From IMG/VR virus record IMGVR_UViG_2802429219_000005: DNA of 19,033 bases; one strand, written 5' to 3'. Positions 6,714 to 19,033 of this stretch are shown here, piece after piece. Position numbers and translations under genes: made by a program. The notes under the pieces were generated by a model. That model was not told the DNA's origin. It worked only from the letters and a program-made list of their open reading frames with translations, and did no database searches. The DNA is from a virus. Its lineage: Duplodnaviria > Heunggongvirae > Uroviricota > Caudoviricetes. Every line of letters starts with the position of its first letter. The first letter of the stretch is position 1.

Positions 6714-6735
6714 TGGTGAAGTGATTAACTGAAAA

Positions 6736-6767
6736 AACGGGTCGCGATGCGGCCCGTTTGTGTTTCT
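6736..6767 (+). terminator. intergenic stem-loop with U-rich tail between D and E (terminator-like or mRNA-stabilising hairpin)
   Basis: 10-bp stem AACGGGTCGC / GCGGCCCGTT (6736-6745 / 6749-6758, one G-U pair), 3-nt loop, followed by TGTGTTTCT. Confidence 0.4.
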
Positions 6768-7811: not shown

Positions 7812-7816
7812 GACGG

Positions 7817-7842
7817 GGCGGGATATTCCCGCCTTTTTCTTT
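7817..7842 (+). terminator. rho-independent terminator-like hairpin downstream of the major capsid gene
   Basis: GGCGGGA (7817-7823), loop TAT, TCCCGCC (7827-7833), followed by TTTTTCTTT (7834-7842). Confidence 0.6.
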
Positions 7843-8618: not shown

Positions 8619-9302
8619 ATGGCGCGGGCATCACGCATCCGGCAAAATCTGTTGTTTGATATCGACGTCGAAGAATTGCGGGATATTGCGGCGCTGGCTG
8701 GCGCAACGCAGCACCAGTTTCGTCTGGCCTATTCCCGCGCACTGAAGCGAACGGCATCAAAAATGCGCATGAAGGCGCTTGCGGAACTGAAAACCGGCCT
8801 GGCTCCCCGCAAAATGGACATGCTGCGCAGGCGTCTTTTTTTCACTCGCATTACCCGGGGTAATGCAATGGATGAAGCCCGTTTCTGGTTTGGTCTTAAT
8901 GCGATCAAGATAAAGGATCTACGCGGACGCATTCGTGGACGACGTGTTCGTCATCATGATCTCCGTGACCCGGTAACCGGGCGGTTTATCAAAGAGAATC
9001 GTGTCAGACGGCGTCGCCGCAAAGCCAGCGATCCGGTTTTTGAACCCAACGGTTCGTTTTTATCTCCCACCGCATATGAAAACGGGCTGGTGATACGTAG
9101 CCGCAAAGAGAACCGACGAACAATCATCATCAAAAATCCGGAAACCGGGCGCGTCCGGGAGGCTGAAGCCGGTATTTATGCCCGTACAATGGATTATGTT
9201 GAAGATGTGGCTTTTGCAGAATGTCTGGAAATTTTTATGAAAGAGTTCGAATCGGACATCCGGCGACGTGCGAAGTACGGCATTACCGTGACCCCCCGAT
9301 AA
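8619..9302 (+). CDS. arginine-rich structural protein, putative tail completion protein (lambda gpZ-like by position and composition)
   Basis: 227 aa, SD AAGGAG at 8605-8610. Very basic with an RRRRRK run (KENRVRRRRRKASDP) reminiscent of the RRRRRKK stretch in lambda Z as recalled. Sits directly after FII, where Z lies in lambda. Function is positional/compositional inference only. Confidence 0.5.
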   Translation: MARASRIRQNLLFDIDVEELRDIAALAGATQHQFRLAYSRALKRTASKMRMKALAELKTGLAPRKMDMLRRRLFFTRITRGNAMDEARFWFGLNAIKIKDLRGRIRGRRVRHHDLRDPVTGRFIKENRVRRRRRKASDPVFEPNGSFLSPTAYENGLVIRSRKENRRTIIIKNPETGRVREAEAGIYARTMDYVEDVAFAECLEIFMKEFESDIRRRAKYGITVTPR

Positions 9303-9318
9303 AAAACGTGAGGACACA

Positions 9319-9882
9319 ATGGCTGAACCCTTATGCATGGCATCCTGGCACGCTGCTGTGCTGGGTGCCCTGAAAGAACTTAAATGGATCAGGGATGCGG
9401 ATACCTACCCTGAACGGGTTACGCAACTGGTCACTCCGGCGGTGTTTCTGGCGGTCGATGGCTGGGATGCGAAAAACAATGCAGACGGACAGATGACGGT
9501 GGTGTTGTCTGCTGCGCTGTGGGTGCTGGTTGATCGTGCCGGTGAGCCGGAGAACGAAAAAAAGGAAGTGGCTGCAAAGCCGGATATTTTTATCCGTTCG
9601 GCAGCCGCCGATCTGACGCACTGGCTCGACGGACAGACGTTCGGGCTGGCAAATGTGGAGCCTGCCATTTTTATATCAGCGGACGCAGATGAAACCGATC
9701 CGCGCCTGGATGATTATCTGGTCTGGCAGATTTCATTTAACCAGACGGTGACGTTTGGTATGGATCTCTTTGCCACGGATAACCTGCCGCTACAGCGGGC
9801 CTGGCTGGGTGTTGCACCGGAGATCGGGCGACAGCATGTGGATGATTACCGGCTGATTTTTGAGAGAAAGCCACGTGAATGA
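9319..9882 (+). CDS. putative tail terminator protein (lambda gpU-like)
   Basis: 187 aa, SD GAGGA at 9308-9312. N-terminal motifs HAAVLGAL and PAVFLAVDG, 28 residues apart, parallel AAVLDAL and PAVAVYLTG (29 apart) in recalled lambda U. Stop overlaps the start of the spike gene (GTGAATGA). Moderate confidence in the family assignment. Confidence 0.55.
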   Translation: MAEPLCMASWHAAVLGALKELKWIRDADTYPERVTQLVTPAVFLAVDGWDAKNNADGQMTVVLSAALWVLVDRAGEPENEKKEVAAKPDIFIRSAAADLTHWLDGQTFGLANVEPAIFISADADETDPRLDDYLVWQISFNQTVTFGMDLFATDNLPLQRAWLGVAPEIGRQHVDDYRLIFERKPRE

Positions 9883-10495
9883 GGTTCTGGGGGATTTACA
9901 GCGCCGCCTGGCAAATATGGTCCGGCGCGGGGTGATCCACTCGGTGCGGCTGGACGGTGGTTTTCCGGAATGCCGCGTGGATCTGGGGGATATTGTGACC
10001 ACCTGGCTGCCATTATGTCAGGGGTTTGCCGGAAAAAACAGGGCAGATTTTGAGCCGTTTGCTGTGGGTGATGCGGTTACGGTGCTGTCAGAGGCCGGGG
10101 AGCTGAATAACGGTCGTGTTTTTCCCGGCTGGAATACCGGTGAGGCACCGGCTCCGCAGGGCAGCGACAGTGAGCACATCACCCGTTACGGAGATGGTAC
10201 TGAAATTTGCTATAACCGGGAGACGCACTCACTGACCATTATTCTGGCGGAAGGGGGCACCTATGCCATTACCGGGAATGGTGTACTGGACGGAAACGTC
10301 ATGATTTCAGAAAACCTGATCGTGAACGGACGCACGATGGTTGAAGGTGAAGTGGTGGTGAAAAGTGATTTTTATGCAAAAGGAGAGGTGACGGATAAAT
10401 CCGGCAGTATGAGCCGGATCCGGGAAACGTTTAATGGACACGACCATCCCGGAGACAGTGGGGGAACCACGAAAGTACCGAATCAGAAAATGTGA
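9875..10495 (+). CDS. baseplate central spike / assembly protein, P2 gpV-like (Mu gp45-like)
   Basis: About 206 aa from GTG 9875. N-terminus (M)NEVLGDLQRRLANMVRRGVIHSV and C-terminal GHDHPGDSGGTT resemble recalled P2 gpV (LARALRNMIRTGII...HxHPGDSGGTT tip motif). The ORF track uses an upstream TTG at 9860. Confidence 0.85.
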   Translation: MNEVLGDLQRRLANMVRRGVIHSVRLDGGFPECRVDLGDIVTTWLPLCQGFAGKNRADFEPFAVGDAVTVLSEAGELNNGRVFPGWNTGEAPAPQGSDSEHITRYGDGTEICYNRETHSLTIILAEGGTYAITGNGVLDGNVMISENLIVNGRTMVEGEVVVKSDFYAKGEVTDKSGSMSRIRETFNGHDHPGDSGGTTKVPNQKM

Positions 10496-10516
10496 CCTGC
10501 TGCGGCAGGTTTTTTT
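10495..10516 (+). terminator. rho-independent terminator-like hairpin between spike gene and sheath gene
   Basis: ACCTGC (10495-10500), loop TGCG, GCAGGT (10505-10510), followed by a 7-T run ending at 10516. The stem begins at the last base of the V stop codon. Confidence 0.6.
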
Positions 10517-10533
10517 ATGTCCGGAGAATGCAA

Positions 10534-12003
10534 ATGGGGCAATTACATGGTGTGGAAACCATCGAGCTGACAGCAGGCACGGTGGCGGTAACCACAATAG
10601 AGACAGCCATTATTGGGGTGGTGGGAACCGCGCCGCAGGCTGCCGGGGCTGTGGCAGCAACACTGACAGCGGGAACGCCGTTGCTGGGTAACGAGCTGAC
10701 CTTTACGGCAAAAGCGGCGGGGCGGAGCGGAAATACCATTACCGTTATTGCTGAACAGGCTTTACAGGCAGCAAAAGAAAAAAGTGCGGGTGCGGTCCCC
10801 ACGTCAGCAAAATGGGAAAACGGAAGCCTGTTGATTTGGCTTGGATGCAGTGAAGAGGGGGCCGGTAATGCCACCGTCAGCGATGTTGTGACGGCAGTGA
10901 ATGGCGTGGCTGGGGTCGGGGTGAGTGCCACCGGCAGCGGTGACGGTATTGTGTCGCCGTTTTCCGGCACACTGAGTGGCGGTGAAGATGAACCGTTTCC
11001 GCTGAACACGCCAGTGGCGATGGCGGGAACAACGGCGCTTTCACGTCTGGGGCTCACCGGAACACTGAAGCAGGCGCTGACGGAGATTAACGACCAGCGT
11101 AACGCGCTGTCGGTGATCGTCCGGGTGGAAGAAAAAACGAAGCCGGAAGAGCAGCGTGCTGCCATTCTTGCGGGGATCAGCATGCTGTCATCGGCAAAAT
11201 CCGTCACCACGTATCAGCCACGTATTGTGATTGCACCAGGATTCAGTGAAGACGATGCGGTAGGTAAGGCACTGGAAACTGTGGCCGGAAAACTGCGGGC
11301 AGTGGCGTACGTGGATTGTGCTGCGGGCGCGACACTGCAGGAAGTGGTGCAGCGTCGTCAGTCTTACGGTGCCCGGACTGAACTACTGCGCCCGCGTGTG
11401 CAGGTCAGTAATGCAGAGGGGCAACTGGTGTATCGCCCGTATTCGGCGTTTGCTGCCGGACTGCGTGCCCGTATTGACTATGAAAAAGGGTGGTGGTGGA
11501 GCAAATCAAACCAGGAGGTTTACAACATCCTCGGTGTTGAGCAGGTGGATGAATTTATCCTCGGTGAGCGTAACTGCGATGCCAACCTGCTTAATATGCA
11601 GAATGTCTCCACCCTGATCCGCCGCGCCGGATTTAAACACTGGGGAAACCGGCTGTGCTCGTCCCATCCTCAGTGGCATTTCGAGTCCGTCCGCCGTACT
11701 GCGGATGTGATTGAAGACAGTATTCAGGAAGCGATGCTGGCATATGTTGACCGCCCGCTTGATCGTCAGAATGCGGACGACATCATTGGCACCATTAATG
11801 CGTATATGCGCCGTCTGGTGGCAGAAGGTGCCATCTTCGGGGGGCGGGCATGGCTGGATCCGGAACTGAATACCGCCGAAACGCTGGCAGCCGGTGAACT
11901 GTACATCAACTATGACTTCGGTCCCAAATCGCCGACTGAACTTATCAGCATGCGGGTGAGCGTCAACAACGAATACGGCATTAAGGAGATGAAGGCAACA
12001 TGA
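10534..12003 (+). CDS. contractile tail sheath protein (P2 FI / Mu L-like) with an extra N-proximal Ala/Gly/Thr-rich region
   Basis: About 489 aa from ATG 10534 (GGAG at 10523-10526). LHGVETIEL near the N-terminus and NVSTLIRRAGFKHWGNR, AGELYINYDFGP in the C-terminal half are typical of P2-type sheath proteins. Roughly 100 aa longer than P2 FI as recalled. Confidence 0.88.
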   Translation: MGQLHGVETIELTAGTVAVTTIETAIIGVVGTAPQAAGAVAATLTAGTPLLGNELTFTAKAAGRSGNTITVIAEQALQAAKEKSAGAVPTSAKWENGSLLIWLGCSEEGAGNATVSDVVTAVNGVAGVGVSATGSGDGIVSPFSGTLSGGEDEPFPLNTPVAMAGTTALSRLGLTGTLKQALTEINDQRNALSVIVRVEEKTKPEEQRAAILAGISMLSSAKSVTTYQPRIVIAPGFSEDDAVGKALETVAGKLRAVAYVDCAAGATLQEVVQRRQSYGARTELLRPRVQVSNAEGQLVYRPYSAFAAGLRARIDYEKGWWWSKSNQEVYNILGVEQVDEFILGERNCDANLLNMQNVSTLIRRAGFKHWGNRLCSSHPQWHFESVRRTADVIEDSIQEAMLAYVDRPLDRQNADDIIGTINAYMRRLVAEGAIFGGRAWLDPELNTAETLAAGELYINYDFGPKSPTELISMRVSVNNEYGIKEMKAT

Positions 12004-12506
12004 GCAGTAAAAACACATTACGGGCCTGGACTTTTTTCCGCCAGGGGATCCGTATTCAGGGAGCGCATGAGTTCACGCCACCCACGCTGTCCATAACCAC
12101 CACCGATTTACGCACCGGGGCACAGGATGCGCCCACGCCGGTTGACGACGGCATGGAGGCGCTGACCTGCCAGATTAAATTCTATGGTCTGGATACAGAC
12201 ATGCTGTCCAGTCTCGGATTTGTCAGTGGCAGCCGCTCCCGCTTCACGGCCTATCAGGGCTATCTGGCAAACGGCACCGCGCTGGGGACCACCGAAGAAA
12301 TCGAAGGTTTTGTGAAAACGGTGACGCCGGATGCGCGCGGAAACAGCGGGCTGTCAGAAAATGCGGTGACAGTGGAAATCGCGGTGAATTATTACCGTCA
12401 GACGCTGGAGGGGATCGAACTCATTATGATTGATACCGAGCGTTTTGAGCGTCGGATCAACGGCGTGAATGTTCTCGCCGGCCTGTCGGCAAAAGTGCGT
12501 CTCTGA
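12000..12506 (+). CDS. tail tube protein (P2 FII / Mu M-like)
   Basis: 168 aa. Start overlaps the sheath stop (ATGA). Size and position immediately after the sheath gene are canonical for contractile-tail tube proteins; assignment is by synteny, with no specific motif match recalled. Confidence 0.8.
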   Translation: MSSKNTLRAWTFFRQGIRIQGAHEFTPPTLSITTTDLRTGAQDAPTPVDDGMEALTCQIKFYGLDTDMLSSLGFVSGSRSRFTAYQGYLANGTALGTTEEIEGFVKTVTPDARGNSGLSENAVTVEIAVNYYRQTLEGIELIMIDTERFERRINGVNVLAGLSAKVRL

Positions 12507-12522
12507 GCACTGATTAACGCAT

Positions 12523-12546
12523 AACGGCCTGCGGGCCGTTTTTTTT
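12523..12546 (+). terminator. rho-independent terminator-like hairpin after the tube gene
   Basis: AACGGCC (12523-12529), loop TGCG, GGCCGTT (12534-12540), followed by TTTTTT (12541-12546). Immediately precedes the chaperone SD AAGGAG. Confidence 0.65.
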
Positions 12547-12558
12547 AAGGAGCAGATT

Positions 12559-12858
12559 ATGAATATTCCGGGTGAAACCCGCACCATCACACTGTACACA
12601 CCTGTCACTCTGGGGGGCGGGGCTGTGCTGGAACACATCACCATGCGCGAACCGCTGGTGCGCGATCGCATTGCCTTCACCAAAGACCGGGGAACAGAGG
12701 AGGAAAAAGAGGCGCGTATGATTGCGCAGCTTTGTAATCTGAGTGAGCAGGATATCTGGCTGCTGACCGCAGCGGATTATGCCCAGCTGACGGATGCCTT
12801 TAATGTTTTTATGCTGCCACCCGGGAAGCGACCGAAACCGAAATCTTCAGAGGGTTAA
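12559..12858 (+). CDS. tail assembly chaperone (P2 gpE / lambda gpG analogue)
   Basis: 99 aa, SD AAGGAG upstream of ATG 12559. Small acidic protein between the tube and tape measure genes, the conserved position of frameshifting tail chaperones. Confidence 0.75.
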   Translation: MNIPGETRTITLYTPVTLGGGAVLEHITMREPLVRDRIAFTKDRGTEEEKEARMIAQLCNLSEQDIWLLTAADYAQLTDAFNVFMLPPGKRPKPKSSEG

Positions 12859-12986
12859 GGTTTCTCGGGCGGCGGCTGCATTTTCCTCTTTCCGATTATC
12901 TGTCCATGCCGTTCAGTGTGTTTACGGCATTTTTACTGGATGAAGTGGAGGCGGTAAAACGTGGGAAGCGTAAGTCAGAATCTTAA
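12559..12986 (+). CDS. putative -1 frameshift extended chaperone (P2 E+E' / lambda GT analogue); slip predicted at the T-run 12806-12810
   Basis: The -1 frame opens at 12804 (after TAA 12801-12803) and runs to TAA 12984-12986, overlapping the tape measure start. It reads CFYAATREATETEIFRGLRFLGRRLHFPLSDYLSMPFSVFTAFLLDEVEAVKRGKRKSES. Predicted fusion is about 142 aa, the size of P2 E+E' as recalled. No canonical X_XXY_YYZ heptamer, so only single-tRNA slippage on UUU is possible. Confidence 0.45.
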
Positions 12987-14610
12987 GGCCACCGTGTCGT
13001 TCGGGGGCAAACTGGACAGTTCGTGGCGTCGTTCGGCGACGGATCTGCGAAAAAATCTGCAGGATGTGGAGCAGCAGGCTGCGCGTTTGCGTAAGGAGCA
13101 GGCAGAGCTGGCAGCAGAAATGAAGCGGGCGGCGCTGGCAGGGAAACGTTTTAAGTCGATGGAGGATGAATACGCCCGGCTCACTGCTGAAATTAAGAAA
13201 GCGGATGCGGCCCAGAAAAAACTGAACCGGAGCCTTGAGCGTCGCGATCGGCTCGGACGTTTTATGGGGAAGGGAAAAAGTCTGCTTGCCGGAACCGGCA
13301 AATTTGCCTGGAATGCCGGTCTGGCGATGGGGGGCGGTGCCGTGACCACGGCACTTGGTGCGCTGATTGCTCCGGCAGCCATGAATGCGCAGACGGCTGA
13401 AACGGCGGGTAAAGCGACTGCGTATGGCGTGGATACCCGTACGTACATGAATTGGGACGCCCTGGCAAAACAGTACGATATGACCGGCGATAATATCGGA
13501 GATCTGTTTGAGGAATACCTGCATAAGGCCGGGGAATATAAACAAAATGGCAAGCAGAGTTCGCTTTCTGACGCCTTTGAAACGCTGGGATTTAAGGAGG
13601 GCGATCTTGCCGGACTGAGTGATTCGTCGCAGTTCGAAAAAATTATCGACAGGGCGCTGTCTCTGGAAGATGAATCAAAGGCATCTTTTGCGCTGGATGC
13701 ATTGTTTGGTGGTGAAGCCAGTAAACTGCTGATGCTGATCAAACGTTCAGGAAAAAGTTTTCAGGAACTGCTGGCTGAGCAGGATAAATATAATCTGGTG
13801 ACAAAAGAGGGGGTGGCTGGCGCACTTGCCGGAAACAAGGCTGTTTCTGATTTGCAGCAGGTTTTTTCTTCTGCGGTTGCAGAAATTTCCGGACAACTGG
13901 GCGCAGAGCTGGCTCCCGCTATACAACAGACAGCGGGTGACCTGGCAGAGTGGTTTAAAGGTGGAGGCATTAAAAAGGTTGTGTCTTTTCTGAGGGACAC
14001 CCTGTATCCGGCAGCCCTGAAGTTTGGCGAAGGCGTCATTTTTGTCGGAAAAATCATTTTTGCAGCAGCCAAAAAGCTCTCCTGGTTGTTACCGGATGAA
14101 CAGGGCGATCAGAAGCAGATTCTGGAGTATGTCGGGCGTGGTGACATGACCGCTGCCCGGACAGTGGCCCGGAACAGCGGGCAGGATGCGTGGCTTGACG
14201 GGCAACTGAAAAATAATCCCGATTTTGAAAAGAGTGTCCGTGAAAAATACAACGCCGCGAAGGGCTTTATGGGCATTGTGGATACGGATGCGTTTCATGA
14301 ATCGGTGAACAGTTACCTCACGCCGGAAAAAACGTTCGATTTTTCGCTGCCGGCAGGATCCGCCGGAAAACAGGATGATCCTTTTGCCAGTGCGGGGGCA
14401 TGGCAGGCTGCCGTGCAGGCTATTCCTGTTGAGGGCGGACAGTCCGGCGCACAGCTGAATGACAACAGTGTGAAGAATTATAACTTCAACATTGTTGCGC
14501 AGCCCGGACAGAGCGAACAGGGTATTGCGGACGCCATTGCCGGAATGACGAAAAACAACCCGGCCTTCAGTGGTAATAATGCGTTGTGGGATGGAGGAAG
14601 TGTCTGGTGA
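12961..14610 (+). CDS. tail tape measure protein
   Basis: 549 aa, GTG start with GGAGG at 12946-12950. Coiled-coil-like N-terminus (LRKNLQDVEQQAARLRKEQAELAAEMKRAAL), Gly/Ala-rich central region, and position after the chaperone. Confidence 0.85.
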   Translation: MGSVSQNLKATVSFGGKLDSSWRRSATDLRKNLQDVEQQAARLRKEQAELAAEMKRAALAGKRFKSMEDEYARLTAEIKKADAAQKKLNRSLERRDRLGRFMGKGKSLLAGTGKFAWNAGLAMGGGAVTTALGALIAPAAMNAQTAETAGKATAYGVDTRTYMNWDALAKQYDMTGDNIGDLFEEYLHKAGEYKQNGKQSSLSDAFETLGFKEGDLAGLSDSSQFEKIIDRALSLEDESKASFALDALFGGEASKLLMLIKRSGKSFQELLAEQDKYNLVTKEGVAGALAGNKAVSDLQQVFSSAVAEISGQLGAELAPAIQQTAGDLAEWFKGGGIKKVVSFLRDTLYPAALKFGEGVIFVGKIIFAAAKKLSWLLPDEQGDQKQILEYVGRGDMTAARTVARNSGQDAWLDGQLKNNPDFEKSVREKYNAAKGFMGIVDTDAFHESVNSYLTPEKTFDFSLPAGSAGKQDDPFASAGAWQAAVQAIPVEGGQSGAQLNDNSVKNYNFNIVAQPGQSEQGIADAIAGMTKNNPAFSGNNALWDGGSVW

Positions 14611-15086
14611 GTGTGGGTTCGGTTATTGCTCTCGCTGAAGACAGCCTTCAGCGTTACAACAGTTATCTCCGTGGTGCTGCAGATGCCAGAGTCATGCTGA
14701 TGCTGGGGGATTTCGCCTTTTCCGTGGATACCACGGCATATAACCAGCTGACCCGTGAGGCCGGGTGGACCTGGAGCGAGCAGTCGCGTATCGGGCAGCA
14801 GAGTCTGCTGCAGTACACCGGGAAAAACGGGCGAACCGTCCGCCTTGAAGGGGAATCGCACGCCTTTTTGGGGAAGTCAGGGACGGAGGCGGTGAACACG
14901 CTGTATGACCTGGCAAATAAGGCTGAGCCGCAACTGCTGGTCAGTGGAGAAGGTGATGTGCTGGGATGGTGGGTGGTGGAGCGTTTTTCTGATTCCACCG
15001 ACTGCTTTTTACCTGGTGGTGGGCACCGTAACAAAAAGTGGAGTCTGGAGCTGAAACATTATGCCGACGATCTGGATAACCCGTGA
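14607..15086 (+). CDS. tail protein, P2 gpU-like
   Basis: About 159 aa from GTG 14607 (GGAGGAAG at 14593-14600); the ORF track uses GTG 14586. MLMLGDFAFSVDTTAYNQLTREAGWTWSEQSRIGQQSLLQYTGKNGRTVRLEG fits the P2 gpU family pattern as recalled. Overlaps the tape measure stop. Confidence 0.75.
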   Translation: MSVGSVIALAEDSLQRYNSYLRGAADARVMLMLGDFAFSVDTTAYNQLTREAGWTWSEQSRIGQQSLLQYTGKNGRTVRLEGESHAFLGKSGTEAVNTLYDLANKAEPQLLVSGEGDVLGWWVVERFSDSTDCFLPGGGHRNKKWSLELKHYADDLDNP

Positions 15087-15276
15087 CGGGGATGTGCTTG
15101 ATGCGATTTGCGCCACGCATTACGGCACGGAAAATCTGTCTGCCGTGCTCACTCTTGTGCTGGAGGCCAATCAGGGGTTGGCAGAGAAGGGCGCGGTTTA
15201 TCCGGCGGGGATCCGGATTGTGTTGCCTGAAATCACACAACAGGTGTCTGAGTCGCCATACAGCCTGTGGGATTAA
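15061..15276 (+). CDS. tail protein X, P2 gpX-like (LysM-like)
   Basis: 71 aa. GDVLDAICATHYG...VLEANQGLAEKGAVYPAGIRIVLPEI resembles recalled P2 X (GDTLDAICVRYYG...VLAANPGLAELGAV). U-X-D order matches R-type pyocin clusters. Confidence 0.75.
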   Translation: MPTIWITRDGDVLDAICATHYGTENLSAVLTLVLEANQGLAEKGAVYPAGIRIVLPEITQQVSESPYSLWD

Positions 15277-15284
15277 GGGAGGAG

Positions 15285-16487
15285 ATGATGACGTCATTAT
15301 TCGAACAGCTGCAGGCAATAAATGCTGCGTATCAGGAGTCCCTGAACAGTGAGGAAAAACAGGAAACCATTGCCACGACCGTCCGGGAATTCTGCCCGGC
15401 GTATCGGGTGACAGCTGAAGGGCGGGATATCACGCGGGTGCTGGCCCGTTATCTTGTGGATATCACTCTGACGGATTACGGCGGAGCCACCGCCAAATCT
15501 GATGAACTGAAAATCACGCTGCTTTCTGAAACACTGCCCCTGCCGACAAAGGGGGCGCGTCTGCGGGTGGCGATGGGGTTTAACGGTAATCTGGTGGACA
15601 AGGGCTGGTTTGTGGTGTGCGGCGTGAGCAGCAGCGGCCCGCCGCGGCGGATCGAGATTTATGCTACCGCTGCCCCCATGAATGCGGAAAAGCAGTCCGG
15701 TGATGTGCTGAATCAGAAAACACGCAGCTGGGATAATCTCACGCTGGGTGATCTGGTGAAAACTGTTGCCACGGAAAACGGACTGAAGGCCCGGGTGGCG
15801 GAGAAGCTGGCGGGGATCCGCATTACCCATGTGGATCAGGTGGCAGAATCGGATGCCAGCCTGTTGTCCCGCCTTGCCCGGACGTATAACGCCGTCAGTA
15901 AACCTGCCGGAGGTTACTGGTTGTTTCTGGAGCAGGGTGCCGGAACCACCGTATCGGGCGCGCCCCTGAAGACCGTGACGCTGACACCTTCCGTGGTGTC
16001 ATCCTGGAATTATCAGGAAGGTGAACGGGGGAGCTCTGGCGGCGGTGGAGATAAAAAAAAGAAGAAAGAAAAAATCACGGTTCGTTATTTTGACAAGGCT
16101 GACGGGCGAACCAAAACGGCAACCGTGGAGCATGACGGCTCGTCTGTAACCAGTCCGTACACGCAACCGGAAAAGGAAACGGCTGAACAACAGGCAAAAT
16201 CGAAAAAAACACAGGCGCAACGCAACAGCCGGAAAATGACGCTGACAGGGCCGTGCCGTCCTTCATATGTTGCCATGACCGCCGAATCCGGCGTGGTGAC
16301 ATCCGGATTTGGTAAGCGGGAAGATCGCCGCTGGCTCGTGGAATCACTGTTTTTTTCCCTCTCATCTTCAGGCTTTACCTTCACGTTTAATCTGGTGGCT
16401 GAAATCAAAAACGCCAGTAAATCAGACAAAAAATCCGGTGATAAAACAGGGCCGGATTATTTTGGTATCGGATCGGGAAAAAAATAA
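15285..16487 (+). CDS. baseplate hub / late control protein, P2 gpD-like (Mu gp44-like), with an internal Gly/Lys-rich low-complexity insert
   Basis: About 400 aa from ATG 15285 (AAGGGAGG upstream; second ATG at 15288). Size and position after U/X match P2 gpD-type proteins. Contains SSGGGGDKKKKKEK encoded by an A8 tract (16053-16060). Confidence 0.8.
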   Translation: MMTSLFEQLQAINAAYQESLNSEEKQETIATTVREFCPAYRVTAEGRDITRVLARYLVDITLTDYGGATAKSDELKITLLSETLPLPTKGARLRVAMGFNGNLVDKGWFVVCGVSSSGPPRRIEIYATAAPMNAEKQSGDVLNQKTRSWDNLTLGDLVKTVATENGLKARVAEKLAGIRITHVDQVAESDASLLSRLARTYNAVSKPAGGYWLFLEQGAGTTVSGAPLKTVTLTPSVVSSWNYQEGERGSSGGGGDKKKKKEKITVRYFDKADGRTKTATVEHDGSSVTSPYTQPEKETAEQQAKSKKTQAQRNSRKMTLTGPCRPSYVAMTAESGVVTSGFGKREDRRWLVESLFFSLSSSGFTFTFNLVAEIKNASKSDKKSGDKTGPDYFGIGSGKK

Positions 16488-16489
16488 TC

Positions 16490-16843
16490 ATGAATGGTGT
16501 GAACTGCCGGACAGGGAAGCGTCTGTCCGGTGCGGCGCATCTGCGCCAGTCTGTCAGCGATATTCTGAACACGCCAGTGGGAAGCCGTGTTCTGGTCAGG
16601 GATTACGGCAGCGATCTTTTTGAATTGCTGGACTCTCCCCGGGATGACCTGTTGAGGCTGCGCATAATAGCTGCCACGGCGACGGCGCTGGCACGCTGGG
16701 AGCCCCGGCTGAAAGTGTCAAAAGTGATCGTAACGTTTCCGGAGGATGAGGCCGGATGTGTGGTGGATATCATGGGGACGAATACGGAAACCGGTACACA
16801 GGTGACAACAGGAGGAATAACCGTTTATGGCAGAAAGTTATGA
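16490..16843 (+). CDS. baseplate assembly protein W (gp25-like / GPW family)
   Basis: 117 aa. HLRQSVSDILNTPVGSRVLVRDYGSDLFELLDSP...ARWEPRLKVSKV is typical of GPW/gp25 baseplate wedge proteins. ATG 3 nt after the gpD-like stop. Confidence 0.85.
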   Translation: MNGVNCRTGKRLSGAAHLRQSVSDILNTPVGSRVLVRDYGSDLFELLDSPRDDLLRLRIIAATATALARWEPRLKVSKVIVTFPEDEAGCVVDIMGTNTETGTQVTTGGITVYGRKL

Positions 16844-17735
16844 TGTGATCAATCTTTCGGATTTGCCCGTACCGGATGCCATCGTGGTGCCTGATGCGGC
16901 GGTGATTTTCGGGGCCTGGCTGGCACGTCTGCGCGAACTGGATCCTGAATTTGATGCCCTGGTGGAATCCGACCCGGCTTACAAGCAGGGCGAAGTGACA
17001 GCCTTTCAGCTTACCCTGGCTTTTCAGCGGGTGAATGATGCTGTGCGGGCCGTTTTTCTGGCAAGTGCGCAGAATGCCGATCTCGATCAGATTGGCGCGG
17101 CGTTCAATGTCGGACGTATGGTGATTGTTCCGGCAAATCCGGATGCCGTGCCTCCGACGGATGCGGTTATGGAAGAGGACGACGCTTTTCGCGAACGCAT
17201 TCAGTTGTCCTGGTCGCAACTGAATACTGCAGGCGCCCGCAATGCTTATCGTTTTCATGCCCGCTCTGCTGATGAAAATGTGCTGGATGCTGATGCCTAT
17301 GGTCCGGAAGAGCACGGGCGTGCGGGGGAGGTGGATGTCTACGTATTGTCCCGTGAAGGAAATGGCACTGCCAGCGAGGCGTTGCTGGATGCGGTCAGTG
17401 CGCGGCTGAATGCTGATGAAATTCGTCCGCTGACGGATTTTGTGACGGTGAAAAGCGCCATTATTAATGACTATACCGTGACGGCTGAGCTGGAAATACC
17501 GGACGGTCCGGATGCCGGTGAAGTGCTGGAAAATGCGAAAAACACGCTGATGTCTTATACCCGGCTGGCAAACCGGATTAATGGCATGGTGCCGCTGTCC
17601 GCTATTTACGCAGCACTGCAACAGTCCGGTGTGGCGCGGGTTATTCTGTCCAGTCCCCGGGCCGATATTGAACCGGCAACCGGTACGGCTCCCCGTTGTG
17701 CCGCCGTTAATGTGACGCGCAGAGAGATGTGGTGA
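16827..17735 (+). CDS. baseplate assembly protein J (P2 gpJ / Mu gp47-like)
   Basis: 302 aa, the same length as P2 gpJ as recalled. Motifs FQRVNDAVRAVFLASAQNADLDQIGAAFNVGR, VPPTDAVMEEDDAFRERIQ, RPLTDFVTVKSA, MVPLSAIYAALQQSGVARV parallel P2 J. SD GGAGGA upstream. Confidence 0.9.
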   Translation: MAESYDVINLSDLPVPDAIVVPDAAVIFGAWLARLRELDPEFDALVESDPAYKQGEVTAFQLTLAFQRVNDAVRAVFLASAQNADLDQIGAAFNVGRMVIVPANPDAVPPTDAVMEEDDAFRERIQLSWSQLNTAGARNAYRFHARSADENVLDADAYGPEEHGRAGEVDVYVLSREGNGTASEALLDAVSARLNADEIRPLTDFVTVKSAIINDYTVTAELEIPDGPDAGEVLENAKNTLMSYTRLANRINGMVPLSAIYAALQQSGVARVILSSPRADIEPATGTAPRCAAVNVTRREMW

Positions 17736-18289
17736 TGACAGAGACGTTTCGCTCACTTCTGCCGCCTTCCGCTGTCAGGCCGGAGCGGTCACAGGAGCAG
17801 GCCACAACAGAAAGTATCCTGACGCTTGATGCGGATATGGTCAGAAAGGTGAAAAATCCGGATACCTGTCCGTTGCATCTGTTGCCGTGGCTGGCATGGG
17901 AGTTTGCTGTGGATTTCTGGCAGGACGACTGGAGCGAAGAGCAGAAGCGGCAGATTTTACGTGATGCGGCATATGTGCATCAGCACCGGGGGACGGCGGG
18001 GGCAGTGTTGCGGGCGCTCAGTGCGGTTGGTGTTCCGGCAGCAATCAAAGAGTGGTGGCAGGATTCACCGCGCAAAAAACCGTACACTTTTCGTGTGGAG
18101 CTGTTTTTGCGGGAAGGGGCTGACAGTGTGCTTTACAGTCGGGTCAGGACGCTGGTCATTAAGGCCAAGAATTTACGCAGCGGTCTGAGCACCATTGACG
18201 TAAATACGAATATCGGAAAGGACAGCCAGTTTTATGTTGGTGGCGCGGTGACCGCGCATATTGATGTGGTGATTGAGGCGGGAGAATAA
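17735..18289 (+). CDS. tail / baseplate protein I (P2 gpI / Mu gp48-like)
   Basis: About 184 aa from ATG 17735, overlapping the J stop (TGATG); the ORF track uses GTG 17729. Size and position between J and the tail fibre gene match P2 gpI. Confidence 0.8.
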   Translation: MTETFRSLLPPSAVRPERSQEQATTESILTLDADMVRKVKNPDTCPLHLLPWLAWEFAVDFWQDDWSEEQKRQILRDAAYVHQHRGTAGAVLRALSAVGVPAAIKEWWQDSPRKKPYTFRVELFLREGADSVLYSRVRTLVIKAKNLRSGLSTIDVNTNIGKDSQFYVGGAVTAHIDVVIEAGE

Positions 18290-18290
18290 C

Positions 18291-19033
18291 GTGACCACGA
18301 AACATTGCAGTATTCTGACAAACAGGGGAAAGGCGCTGGAGGCCGCGTCTGCGGCGGGTGGCGCGCCGGTGGTACTGGACGGGTTTGTGGTGGGAGACGG
18401 AAACGGAAATGCTGTCACGCCAGAGGCAGGGCAGACGGCTCTGGTCAGGGAAGTTTATCGCGGCACCATATCACGTCTGGCGGTCTCGCCTGAGCAGGAA
18501 AACCAGTTTATTGCGTATCTAGTGCTGCCGGAGGGCGTGGGGGGATTTACGGTCAGGGAAGCGGGGCTGCTGACCAGTGATGGTGAGCTTTATGCCGTCG
18601 GAAGTTGTGCTGCCATTGAGAAACCGAAAAATGGTGTGACAGCCACACTGCAGTTCCGGCTGGCAGTGGCTGAAAGTGCGCAGGTCACACTGAATGTGGC
18701 AACCGGAGATGGTCTGTTTCTGCGACAGGACAGGAATCTTTCGGATGTGGAAGACAGGGATGAGGCTGTCGAAAACCTCGGATTAAAACCCACGGTGGAC
18801 AAGGCAAAAAATGCCGTTCAGCGTGATGGTGACACCATGAGTGGTGATTTGACGTTTGAAAATGACTCAATCCTTGCGTGGATTCGAAATACAGATTGGG
18901 CAAAGATTGGGTTTAAAAATGATTCGGATTCAGACACCGATTCATATCTGTGGTTTGAAGCGGGGGATAATGGAAACGAATATTTCAAGTGGCGGAGTAA
19001 GTCTGGAACCACAACCAAAGACCTGATGAATCT
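18291..19033 (+). CDS. tail fibre protein, N-terminal part (P2 gpH-like); 3' end lies beyond the window
   Basis: GTG 18291 with GGAG at 18281-18284. Frame checked codon by codon and open to the window end (247 codons). N-terminal region GQTALVREVYRGTISRLAVS...AYLVLPEGVGGFTVREAGLL and the later GDTMSGDLTFENDSILAWIRNTDWAKIGFKND segment are typical of P2-type fibres. Missing from the ORF track because it has no stop in the window. Confidence 0.85.
   Translation, partial: MTTKHCSILTNRGKALEAASAAGGAPVVLDGFVVGDGNGNAVTPEAGQTALVREVYRGTISRLAVSPEQENQFIAYLVLPEGVGGFTVREAGLLTSDGELYAVGSCAAIEKPKNGVTATLQFRLAVAESAQVTLNVATGDGLFLRQDRNLSDVEDRDEAVENLGLKPTVDKAKNAVQRDGDTMSGDLTFENDSILAWIRNTDWAKIGFKNDSDSDTDSYLWFEAGDNGNEYFKWRSKSGTTTKDLMN

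Follow-up and report, generated by a model that had tools for sequence, protein, structure and literature searches.

The window analysed here, the whole stretch of 19,033 nucleotides of a caudoviricete genome (IMGVR_UViG_2802429219_000005), raises the question of why the gene for the baseplate central spike (V) stands directly upstream of the tail sheath gene, with a hairpin and a run of T residues between the two. An earlier note had proposed that the spike gene was displaced to this position, fenced off by a terminator and possibly placed under separate dosage control. Our reading of the locus is that it was very probably the wedge/fibre cassette that moved, and not the spike gene. The explanation given below as a whole, comprising the anatomy of the window, the history of the swap and the function of the hairpin, is judged from sequence comparisons to be probably correct.

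Tail genes of the window and the identity of the spike

The window is, with a high degree of confidence that applies jointly to the position of V and to the swap described below, the late region of a lambdoid temperate myophage, in which a lambda-type head module is joined to a P2-type tail module. The features of the tail module are as follows.

8619-9302, + strand: tail-completion or Neck1-type protein, 227 aa, which opens the tail module (PHROG 27 'tail completion or Neck1', E 4.7e-24)
9319-9882, + strand: collar-like (sheath-end) protein, 187 aa, the P2 gpS equivalent by position (R2 pyocin collar profile match, PHROG 1072)
9875-9882, + strand: 8-nt overlap GTGAATGA, with the V start codon within the end of the collar-like gene (direct sequence reading)
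9875-10495, + strand: gpV-type baseplate central spike, 206 aa, with HxH apex motif (PF04717, TIGR01644, phmmer to 3QR8)
10494-10516, + strand: intrinsic-terminator-type hairpin (ACCUGC-UGCG-GCAGGU) and U7 (fold and conservation)
10517-10533, + strand: sheath leader, with Shine-Dalgarno GGAG at 10523-10526 (sequence)
10534-12003, + strand: tail sheath (FI-like), 489 aa (Pfam Phage_sheath_1 and Phage_sheath_1C)
12000-12506, + strand: tail tube (FII-like) (Pfam Phage_tube, E 1.4e-19)
12523-12548, + strand: second terminator-type hairpin (AACGGCC-UGCG-GGCCGUU) and U8, which closes the sheath-tube pair
12559-12858, + strand: tail assembly chaperone (gpE-like) (Pfam Phage_TAC_7)
12961-14610, + strand: tape measure protein (TMP) (PHROG 3654 and PHROG 8125)
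14607-15086, + strand: gpU-like (P2 U) tail protein (Pfam Phage_P2_GpU, E 1.1e-29)
15061-15276, + strand: gpX, LysM-type tail protein X (Pfam Phage_tail_X, E 2.4e-15)
15285-16487, + strand: gpD-like baseplate hub (Pfam Phage_GPD)
16490-16843, + strand: gpW/gp25 wedge protein, first gene of the relocated wedge/fibre cassette (Pfam GPW_gp25)
16827-17735, + strand: gpJ wedge protein (Pfam Baseplate_J)
17729-18289, + strand: gpI wedge protein (Pfam Tail_P2_I)
18291-19033, + strand: start of a tail fibre gene, open to the window end (frame without a stop codon; the positional equivalent in one relative, L038, is annotated as tail protein)

An ORF at 15083-15352 that had been considered as gpX was found to be spurious, the true gpX being the gene at 15061-15276, and a small ORF from the ATG at 10517 was dropped because relatives have ACG or ATA in place of that ATG. 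A scan of the window against Rfam found no known RNA family.

V begins with a GTG codon and ends with the TGA at 10493-10495. Residues 31-86 of its product correspond to the N-terminal OB-fold of PF04717 (Phage_base_V; E 2.5e-7, 31.4 bits against a cut-off of 23.8). Profile search, named in the earlier note as a possible refuter of its proposal that V encodes a gpV-type spike, upheld that proposal: the product matches NCBIfam TIGR01644 (phage_P2_V) at 85 bits (cut-off 46.75), and there is a full-length phmmer match of residues 6-202 to residues 8-210 of the P2 gpV crystal structure 3QR8 (E 3.9e-22), together with a match to the R-pyocin spike PA0616 (4S37, E 6.9e-10). The apex motif HDHPGDSGGTT lines up with HKHPGDSGGTT of P2, such that H189-D-H191 lies opposite the H-K-H of P2, and both histidines of the HxH motif, which was defined as an iron-cage apex motif in bioRxiv 10.1101/2023.02.25.529910, are invariant across the family alignments. 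The start codon of V overlaps the upstream stop codon (TGA, 9880-9882) by 8 nt, and an overlap of the RTGAGTGA type with the upstream gene is repeated in most relatives, in agreement with the earlier suggestion that V is translationally coupled to that gene.

The upstream gene itself had been described as similar to lambda U, and this assignment has to be replaced. When the family profile of the 187-aa protein was compared with all PDB sequences (E <= 10), the R2 pyocin collar PA0615 (6U5F, E 1.2e-5) was the single match, and a comparison with Pfam at E <= 1 yielded nothing but a weak, sub-threshold match to Mu gp37; neither lambda gpU nor a tail-U family was matched. The family profiles of the 227-aa and 187-aa proteins gave no signal with P2 gpR and gpS, a comparison of shallow profiles against single sequences. 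In exchanges of the head module, the 227-aa tail-completion gene stays with the tail module.

Gene order and its history

The order in the window is V, sheath, tube, E, TMP, U, X, D, W, J, I and fibre. The P2-type order, with W directly after V and the sheath gene after the fibre gene, is not found, as V leads into the sheath gene and D into W; nor is the Mu-type order, with the spike gene between hub and W, as D (ending at 16487) and W (starting at 16490) are only 2 nt apart with no gene between them. A second spike gene is absent between D and W, and V is the sole central spike in the window. Inspection of the D-W junction revealed no hairpin there in the lineage of the window. Comparison with the database records of P2 and Mu confirmed what had been noticed earlier, namely that the order is unlike that of either phage, that the cluster is rearranged relative to P2 and that W-J-I lie downstream of gpD at the positions listed above.

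The proposal that V was displaced upstream of the sheath gene fared differently in the synteny comparison. In a family set of 94 non-redundant loci, V is followed by the sheath gene in 87 and by W-J-I, then the sheath gene and finally D in 7, and the neck genes are alike in all of them. The 7 P2-order relatives, among them loci from Dryocola, Serratia rubidaea and Cedecea and the IMG/VR contigs L113-L116, have the same two neck genes, a V product that is 56-61% identical and the same hairpin after V, followed by W-J-I-fibre-sheath-tube-E-T-U-D. In neighbour-joining trees (without support values, and with P2 on a long branch as the root), these relatives branch basally for V and for the sheath, and are not cleanly basal for the tube and J. 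Since these basal relatives combine the same neck genes, V and hairpin with the P2 order, it appears that the wedge/fibre and sheath-to-D cassettes swapped places, and V is found directly before the sheath gene because the wedge and fibre genes were relocated to the cluster's end. V itself has stayed in the S-V position, the ancestral one, which it shares with P2 and the 7 relatives. As retrieved, the P2-order loci extend as far as D, and the third joint, further downstream, lies beyond them.

The ancestral order V / W-J-I-H-G / FI-FII-E-T-U-X-D would have become V / FI-FII-E-T-U-X-D / W-J-I-H-G. V is bound to its upstream gene by the overlap, and the sole open joints of the ancestral cluster would have been the short intergenic elements consisting of a hairpin and a U-run, with the breakpoints exactly there. 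That V holds the ancestral position seen in P2 and R-pyocins, and that two cassettes downstream of it were exchanged at joints marked by hairpins, is very likely on these comparisons, the same confidence covering this history and the anatomy of the window together. The matches in STEC306-308 that begin at the sheath gene, which had been considered as a mosaic V/sheath joint, proved to be a deletion remnant of a degraded prophage.

The hairpin between the spike and sheath genes

The hairpin and T7 that had been reported between V and the sheath gene are present at 10494-10516. The stem pairs A10495-C10500 with G10505-T10510, with an additional G10494-U10511 wobble, around a UGCG loop, and the T-run occupies 10510-10516; this corresponds to a stem of 6-7 bp with 4-5 G-C pairs, followed by U7, with a predicted energy of -11.6 kcal/mol. 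The hairpin shares the last base of the V stop codon, and the U-run ends 17 nt before the sheath ATG at 10534. By itself the fold energy is unexceptional in comparison with shuffles (z = -1.04), and a terminator scan across the window found 28 candidates against 20.3 +/- 4.8 expected, a mild enrichment only. Among the relatives, the hairpin was found with compensatory changes at 90 of the 94 loci. Across 18 distinct variants of it, 98.1% of cells are paired and four of the six pairs have changed on both sides; none of 500 shuffles matched the observed score, and slid controls scored far lower. The loops in relatives are mostly of the UNCG type, the U-run is invariant, and in front of their sheath genes the relatives also conserve the T-run with ATGYCTGGAGAAA after it. 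Furthermore, the 26-nt intergenic stretch is the same in the window and in Citrobacter phage Chris1 (ON041214), while the flanking proteins are only 70-76% identical.

Similar hairpins are found at other cassette ends. A hairpin is located within 75 nt upstream of the sheath gene at 92 of 93 loci, even where a fibre-assembly gene or inserted cargo lies upstream instead of V, and 3' of the tube gene at 86 of 88 family loci. In two loci with cargo inserted after V (L028 and L033), the hairpin remains attached to the sheath gene, and the P2-order loci have one hairpin 3' of V and another directly 5' of the sheath gene. Hairpins on the + strand of the window with stems of at least 7 bp number four, all intergenic, and follow the decoration gene, the major capsid gene, V and the tube gene. 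A hairpin 3' of D is present at merely 3 of 74 loci: Hafnia phage yong2 (MZ516527) and L031 retain it, followed by a W leader that resembles the one 3' of the V hairpin in P2-order loci, and Chris1 and L016 have D-W hairpin remnants without a U-run. Since the sheath gene has a hairpin in front of it irrespective of its upstream neighbour, and the tube gene has one behind it, these elements appear to be punctuation of the sheath-tube cassette and not a fence specific to the spike, as had been assumed. They would serve as marks that bracket the genes of the most abundant virion proteins, namely the major capsid gene and the sheath-tube pair.

In close relatives, a Q antiterminator drives the late operon. 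Phage yong2, which is lambdoid, encodes a Phage_antiter_Q protein (E 6e-48), and in an E. coli RM10740 prophage that is 95-96% identical to the window, tRNAs, stx2e and lysis genes lie downstream of the gene for a DUF1133/Phage_antitermQ protein. One report (PMC9388147) states that terminator hairpins are not formed by Q-loaded polymerase. As the close relatives are lambdoid phages with Q antiterminators, the V-sheath hairpin is most likely read through during lytic growth. It would halt polymerase that lacks the Q modification, for example polymerase coming from prophage-expressed cargo or from spurious starts, and would also serve as a stable RNA end, giving the sheath-tube mRNA segment a separate half-life. 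For a role purely in RNA stability, conservation of the U-run would be superfluous. Taking structure and roles together, we tentatively suggest that 10494-10516 forms a genuine intrinsic-terminator-type RNA hairpin under purifying selection that would act as punctuation and be read through in the lytic cycle.

Several other explanations were weighed against this one. If V had been displaced upstream of the sheath gene, the terminator would end a head-neck-spike transcript and give the spike its own dosage control, which would fit the coupling of V to upstream genes, the canonical hairpin and U7 behind it, and the fact that the hairpin immediately adjoins the V stop codon in nearly all relatives. 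However, V has the same position in P2 and in the basal relatives, and a hairpin of the same kind precedes the sheath gene where V is not its neighbour. The spike is present in 3 copies per tail and the sheath, the most abundant tail protein, in hundreds, and attenuation would thus favour the scarce spike at the expense of the sheath; in addition, the Q antiterminators found in relatives should override the hairpin in lytic growth. This explanation is therefore improbable, and it is unlikely that the hairpin sets the dose of the spike. A translational role can be attributed to the same element, in which the hairpin and single-stranded U7 would be a standby site or S1-binding enhancer that shields the ribosome-binding site of the sheath gene from structure further upstream and from ribosomes reaching the end of V; the sheath would then be initiated independently and at a high rate. 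The distance from the hairpin end to the start ATG, near-constant at 20-27 nt across all arrangements, the invariant U-run and the abundance of the sheath are in line with such a role, but the same architecture is found before genes of low-copy proteins (W in P2-order loci and E after the tube gene) and a compact terminator with a ribosome-binding site would give an equal geometry, so that we consider this role unlikely. There is likewise only a small probability that the hairpin and U-run elements are recombination joints that permute the tail cassettes, so that the family would represent a surviving intermediate between the gene orders of P2 and Mu, and that the hairpin at the V stop codon is at the same time a translation-gated attenuator. 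With such gating, a ribosome ending V would cover the stem and allow read-through, and untranslated or non-antiterminated transcripts would stop before the sheath and tube genes.

It is very unlikely that the hairpin is an efficient operon-end terminator of the P2 style, with transcription from the sheath gene to D starting at a separate late promoter that depends on an activator, as pF of P2 does. The V and F operons of P2 are indeed parted by a terminator and the pF promoter, and phage Smp131 has comparable promoters after a rearrangement of its own (PMC3931495). Here, however, merely 17 nt, with the Shine-Dalgarno sequence inside, separate the U-run from the sheath start, and there is no + strand promoter-like site between 8246 and 16242 of the window. 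Depending on the arrangement, V, a fibre-assembly gene or cargo lies 5' of the sheath hairpin; these sequences are unrelated to one another, and a conserved activator site there is therefore impossible. The layout of yong2 is lambdoid with Q, and an Ogr-type gene is not annotated in it. That the hairpins are neutral relics of P2-type operon terminators, irrelevant since the tail module came under Q, is most improbable, as the decay or deletion of the D-W hairpin in most lineages is set against retention of the V/sheath and tube hairpins in >95% of loci with V identity down to 56%, and against compensatory substitutions and an intact U-run, unlike neutral decay.

Comparison with known tail clusters

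Intrinsic terminators in Q-antiterminated lambdoid late operons likewise consist of a GC-rich hairpin of the UNCG type and a U-tract, and the operon of the relatives is under Q; in comparison with those terminators, the placement here is unusually tight, overlapping a stop codon and ending 17 nt before the next start. Among cultured phages, Chris1 and yong2 have the same tail module and V-hairpin-sheath joint, with V 70% identical and an identical hairpin in Chris1, and V 60% identical and a compensatorily changed hairpin in yong2. They differ from the window in a head module of the ClpP-capsid fusion type and, for yong2, in the retained D-W hairpin. Since both are isolated phages, the permuted order is functional, and they offer a test system for internal terminators in lambdoid late operons. 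A literature search found no paper on the tail gene order of Chris1 or yong2, nor on this order in Stx2e prophages with tail sheaths; the lineage has a clinical link through the E. coli prophage that carries Stx2e.

In the R-type pyocin of P. aeruginosa, the collar gene PA0615 lies directly before the spike gene PA0616, just as the collar-like gene lies before V here. R-type pyocins keep the P2 order after the spike and have no head genes. In the P2 tail cluster (R S / V W J I H G / FI FII E E' T U D), with a record order of R-S-(terminator, orf30, pV)-V-W-J-I-H-G-(terminator)-FI...D, V also follows the tail-completion genes and terminators also stand at cassette ends, and the window has homologues of V, FI, FII, E, U, X, D, W, J and I. 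In contrast to P2, the W-J-I-H-G and FI-to-D cassettes are swapped here, X lies between U and D and not next to the lysis genes, V is fused by overlap to the upstream unit and does not head its own Ogr-dependent operon, and the head and regulatory modules are lambdoid, the regulatory side as judged from relatives. Another permutation of the same P2 cassettes is found in Smp131 (Stenotrophomonas), a Zymomonas plasmid prophage and Microcystis phage Mae-JY29 (PMC3931495), with the order R S / J I H G / V W / FI...D, in which V and W moved together and W still parts V from the sheath gene. This published permutation shows that reshuffling of P2 cassettes was already known; the permuted cluster described here is a well-supported and fairly ordinary variant of known phage gene order, and none of these findings overturns current understanding. 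The Mu cluster (gp37, gp38, L, M, gp41, gp42, gp43, P/gp44, gp45, gp46, gp47, gp48, S) shares the order sheath-tube-chaperone-TMP-...-hub-W-J-I-fibre and differs in having gp45, its spike, after the hub and before gp46, whereas here the spike gene is 5' of the sheath gene and every other gene is in Mu order. The P2-order and permuted relatives therefore form a natural before-and-after pair for the reshuffling of contractile-tail clusters and for the relation between the P2 and Mu orders.

The spike gene and its neighbours

The + strand of the window is an uninterrupted phage late region, with lambda-type head genes (Nu1, gpA, W, portal, S49 protease, decoration protein, major capsid E, FI and FII) and a P2-type tail module.

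Tail module of the window and elements of the V/sheath joint
8619 (start of tail module), +: gene 1, 227-aa tail-completion/Neck1-type protein
Upstream side of the spike gene, +: gene 2, 187-aa protein
9875-10495, +: gpV-type spike, 206 aa
10493-10495, +: V stop TGA, running directly into the hairpin
10494-10516, +: hairpin ACCUGC-UGCG-GCAGGU + U7, -11.6 kcal/mol
10523-10526, +: GGAG before the sheath ATG at 10534
10534-12003, +: sheath
Directly after the sheath gene, +: tube
Between tube and gpU, +: gpE-type chaperone, then tape measure
Between tape measure and gpX, +: gpU
15061-15276, +: gpX, 71 aa, Pfam Phage_tail_X, overlapping the ends of U and D
15285-16487, +: gpD
16490-16843, +: gpW
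After gpW, +: gpJ, then gpI
After gpI, running past the window end, +: fibre gene, start only

A longer mechanical ORF (15083-15352) was considered as gpX and rejected as spurious, the real gpX lying in another frame. Among the relatives, two unrelated head modules are joined to the same tail module (95-100% identical), either the lambda type of the window or a ClpP-protease/capsid fusion type (loci L003, L005, L006 versus L008, L011, L013, L014); in the window this mosaic joint falls at ~8600, between the FII-like gene and 8619, just 5' of the 227-aa gene.

As the earlier note had proposed, 9875-10495 encodes a central spike of gpV type: it matches Pfam Phage_base_V above threshold and TIGR01644 at 85 bits (cut-off 46.75), it aligns full length with the P2 gpV crystal structure 3QR8 (E 3.9e-22), and its HDHPGDSGGTT motif lines up with the P2 apex HKHPGDSGGTT. 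The iron cage at the tip of the spike has been reported to be built by this HxH motif (bioRxiv 10.1101/2023.02.25.529910). RefSeq annotations of E. coli prophages routinely name the gene baseplate assembly protein V. D and W, 2 nt apart, leave no space for a second spike gene. The proposed coupling to the upstream gene was also found, with an 8-nt overlap between the GTG start at 9875 and the upstream stop at 9880-9882 that is seen again in relatives. The upstream gene itself had been called lambda U-like, which does not hold: no lambda gpU similarity was found in the 187-aa protein, the sole match of its family profile was the R2 pyocin collar protein PA0615 (E 1.2e-5), and a match to Mu gp37 was weak and sub-threshold. 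In a Providencia alcalifaciens locus (L026, 1083-1741), the V homologue is apparently frameshifted near its 3' end, and the usual C-terminus and hairpin are found in another frame.

A hairpin under selection at the V/sheath joint

The hairpin and T7 run noted between V and the sheath gene are present. By energy alone the hairpin is not beyond chance (z = -1.04 against shuffles), and a terminator scan across the window gave mild enrichment only; by conservation, however, it is more than chance. Relatives were drawn from annotated phages, from IMG/VR and from a set with one genome per species, giving 94 loci once non-redundant. In 90, the V stop is succeeded by a hairpin with a T-run; two of the four exceptions have inserted DNA, one has a frameshifted V and one a stem mismatch. 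The 18 distinct variants are 98% paired, with an invariant U-run and mostly UNCG-type loops, and four of the six stem pairs are altered on both sides (for example, U-A, C-G and A-U at one position), a covariation reached by 0 of 500 shuffles, with slid controls far lower. Furthermore, the window and the isolated Citrobacter phage Chris1 (ON041214) have the same 26 nt between the two genes, while the flanking proteins are only 70-76% identical. We conclude that selection maintains a terminator-type RNA hairpin here.

It had been suggested that the hairpin fences off the spike gene, but it is not spike-specific. Of 93 loci, 92 have a hairpin in the 75 nt before the sheath gene, including those with P2 order, where the upstream neighbour is the fibre-assembly gene, and two with reverse-strand cargo between the V stop and the hairpin. 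A hairpin also stands after the tube gene in 86 of 88 loci, but just 3 of 74 have one after D. The four strongest + strand hairpins of the window are all intergenic, one after V and three others as listed. Overall, hairpins punctuate the genes whose products are most abundant in the virion.

Other strong terminator-type hairpins in the window
6735-6759, +: after the decoration gene
7815-7835, +: after the major capsid gene
12523-12548, +: after the tube gene, sharing the C-UGCG-G loop of the V hairpin

The cargo is inserted, on the reverse strand, precisely where the V stop meets the sheath hairpin, and marks the joint as a permissive insertion site: in Rouxiella (L028, 9619-11060) it comprises 226-aa and 143-aa ORFs, the latter with a cytidine-deaminase-like motif (HAE...PCxxC), and in Tatumella (L033, 9598-10030) a 77-aa ORF.

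The isolated Hafnia phage yong2 (MZ516527) is lambdoid, encoding cI, cII, RusA and a Q antiterminator (Pfam PF06323, E 6e-48), after whose gene the lysis, head and tail genes are located. An E. coli RM10740 prophage, 95-96% identical to the window across head and tail, encodes a DUF1133/Phage_antitermQ protein, with tRNAs, stx2e and lysis genes downstream of it; the window is therefore placed in a Stx2e-type lambdoid myophage lineage. In this prophage (L038, NZ_CP043821.1, 19998-21233), the Shiga toxin genes stx2e A and B lie between the tRNA cluster and the lysis genes, a stretch that corresponds to sequence preceding window position 1. One study reports that terminator hairpins cannot form with Q-loaded polymerase (PMC9388147). 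Given the Q context of the relatives, polymerase would read through the V/sheath hairpin during lytic growth, and the hairpin may have been selected for halting unmodified polymerase or, alone or in addition, for stable RNA ends that would give the sheath-tube segment its own lifetime. The sheath is needed in hundreds of copies and the spike in three. The separate spike dosage proposed in the earlier note is unlikely, because attenuation here would lower sheath relative to the three-copy spike.

Alternatively, the hairpin could be a translational standby or enhancer site, which we consider unlikely; more doubtful still are separate P2-style operons on either side of it. The U-run lies only 17 nt from the sheath start, and no promoter-like site was found on the + strand anywhere near the hairpin. 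A neutral relic is the least credible, and specific evidence stands against each of the three. These phages offer a tractable system in which to ask what internal terminators do in Q-driven late operons.

Gene order and the probable cassette swap

As had been observed, the window order agrees neither with P2 (R S, V W J I H G and FI FII E E' T U D, with terminators at cassette ends) nor with Mu (sheath, tube, chaperone, TMP, gp43, hub, spike gp45, gp46, gp47, gp48, fibre) in their annotated records. The proposed synteny comparison with related prophages gave the window order in 87 of the 94 loci. The other seven, from Dryocola, Serratia rubidaea, Cedecea and four IMG/VR contigs, share both neck genes, V (56-61% identical) and the hairpin behind it with the window, but go on in P2 order as W-J-I-fibre-sheath-tube-E-T-U-D. 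In P2-rooted neighbour-joining trees of V and sheath, calculated without support values, the P2-order loci are basal to a single derived group of window-order loci; the trees of tube and J are less clear-cut. Read most simply, V stayed where it was ancestrally, immediately behind the collar/tail-completion gene, just as S precedes V in P2 and PA0615 precedes PA0616 in the pyocin cluster, and the two cassettes downstream swapped places once, after which the order is that of Mu for all genes but V. On this reading the spike was not displaced, contrary to the earlier note.

P2-order relatives have one hairpin and T-run after V and a second ~20 nt upstream of the sheath start, whereas in window-order relatives a single hairpin links the V stop to the sheath leader. 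An extra hairpin is kept between D and W in yong2 and Rosenbergiella prophages, where the W leader resembles that after the V hairpin in P2-order loci; at this joint, Chris1 and locus L016 have decayed stems only and the window none. The breakpoints therefore coincide with hairpin elements. This also accounts for V staying behind, since it overlaps the gene before it and so has no free joint there. A degraded prophage copy in E. coli STEC306-308 (L002, 8144-11828) has its sheath gene fused by deletion to a truncated ATP-binding protein gene and its tape measure gene truncated beside a transporter pseudogene.

Comparison with known tail cassettes

The sequence observation of the earlier note is therefore confirmed and its interpretation partly supported; the novelty is modest, and the main gain is the corrected reading, in which it was the wedge/fibre cassette and not the spike that changed place. 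The V-sheath order is found in the isolated phages Chris1 and yong2, and with a chimeric V-plus-sheath protein query they were the only ones with direct adjacency among 50,697 phage records. A different permutation of the same P2 cassettes (R S, J I H G, V W, FI...D) is common to phages of very different hosts, namely Smp131, a Zymomonas plasmid and the Microcystis phage Mae-JY29 (loci L119, L120 and L121), and has already been noted for Smp131 (PMC3931495), so reshuffling of P2-type tail cassettes is a known phenomenon. The window order is a further variant, apparently not described, for which the evidence on polarity and joints is unusually clear.
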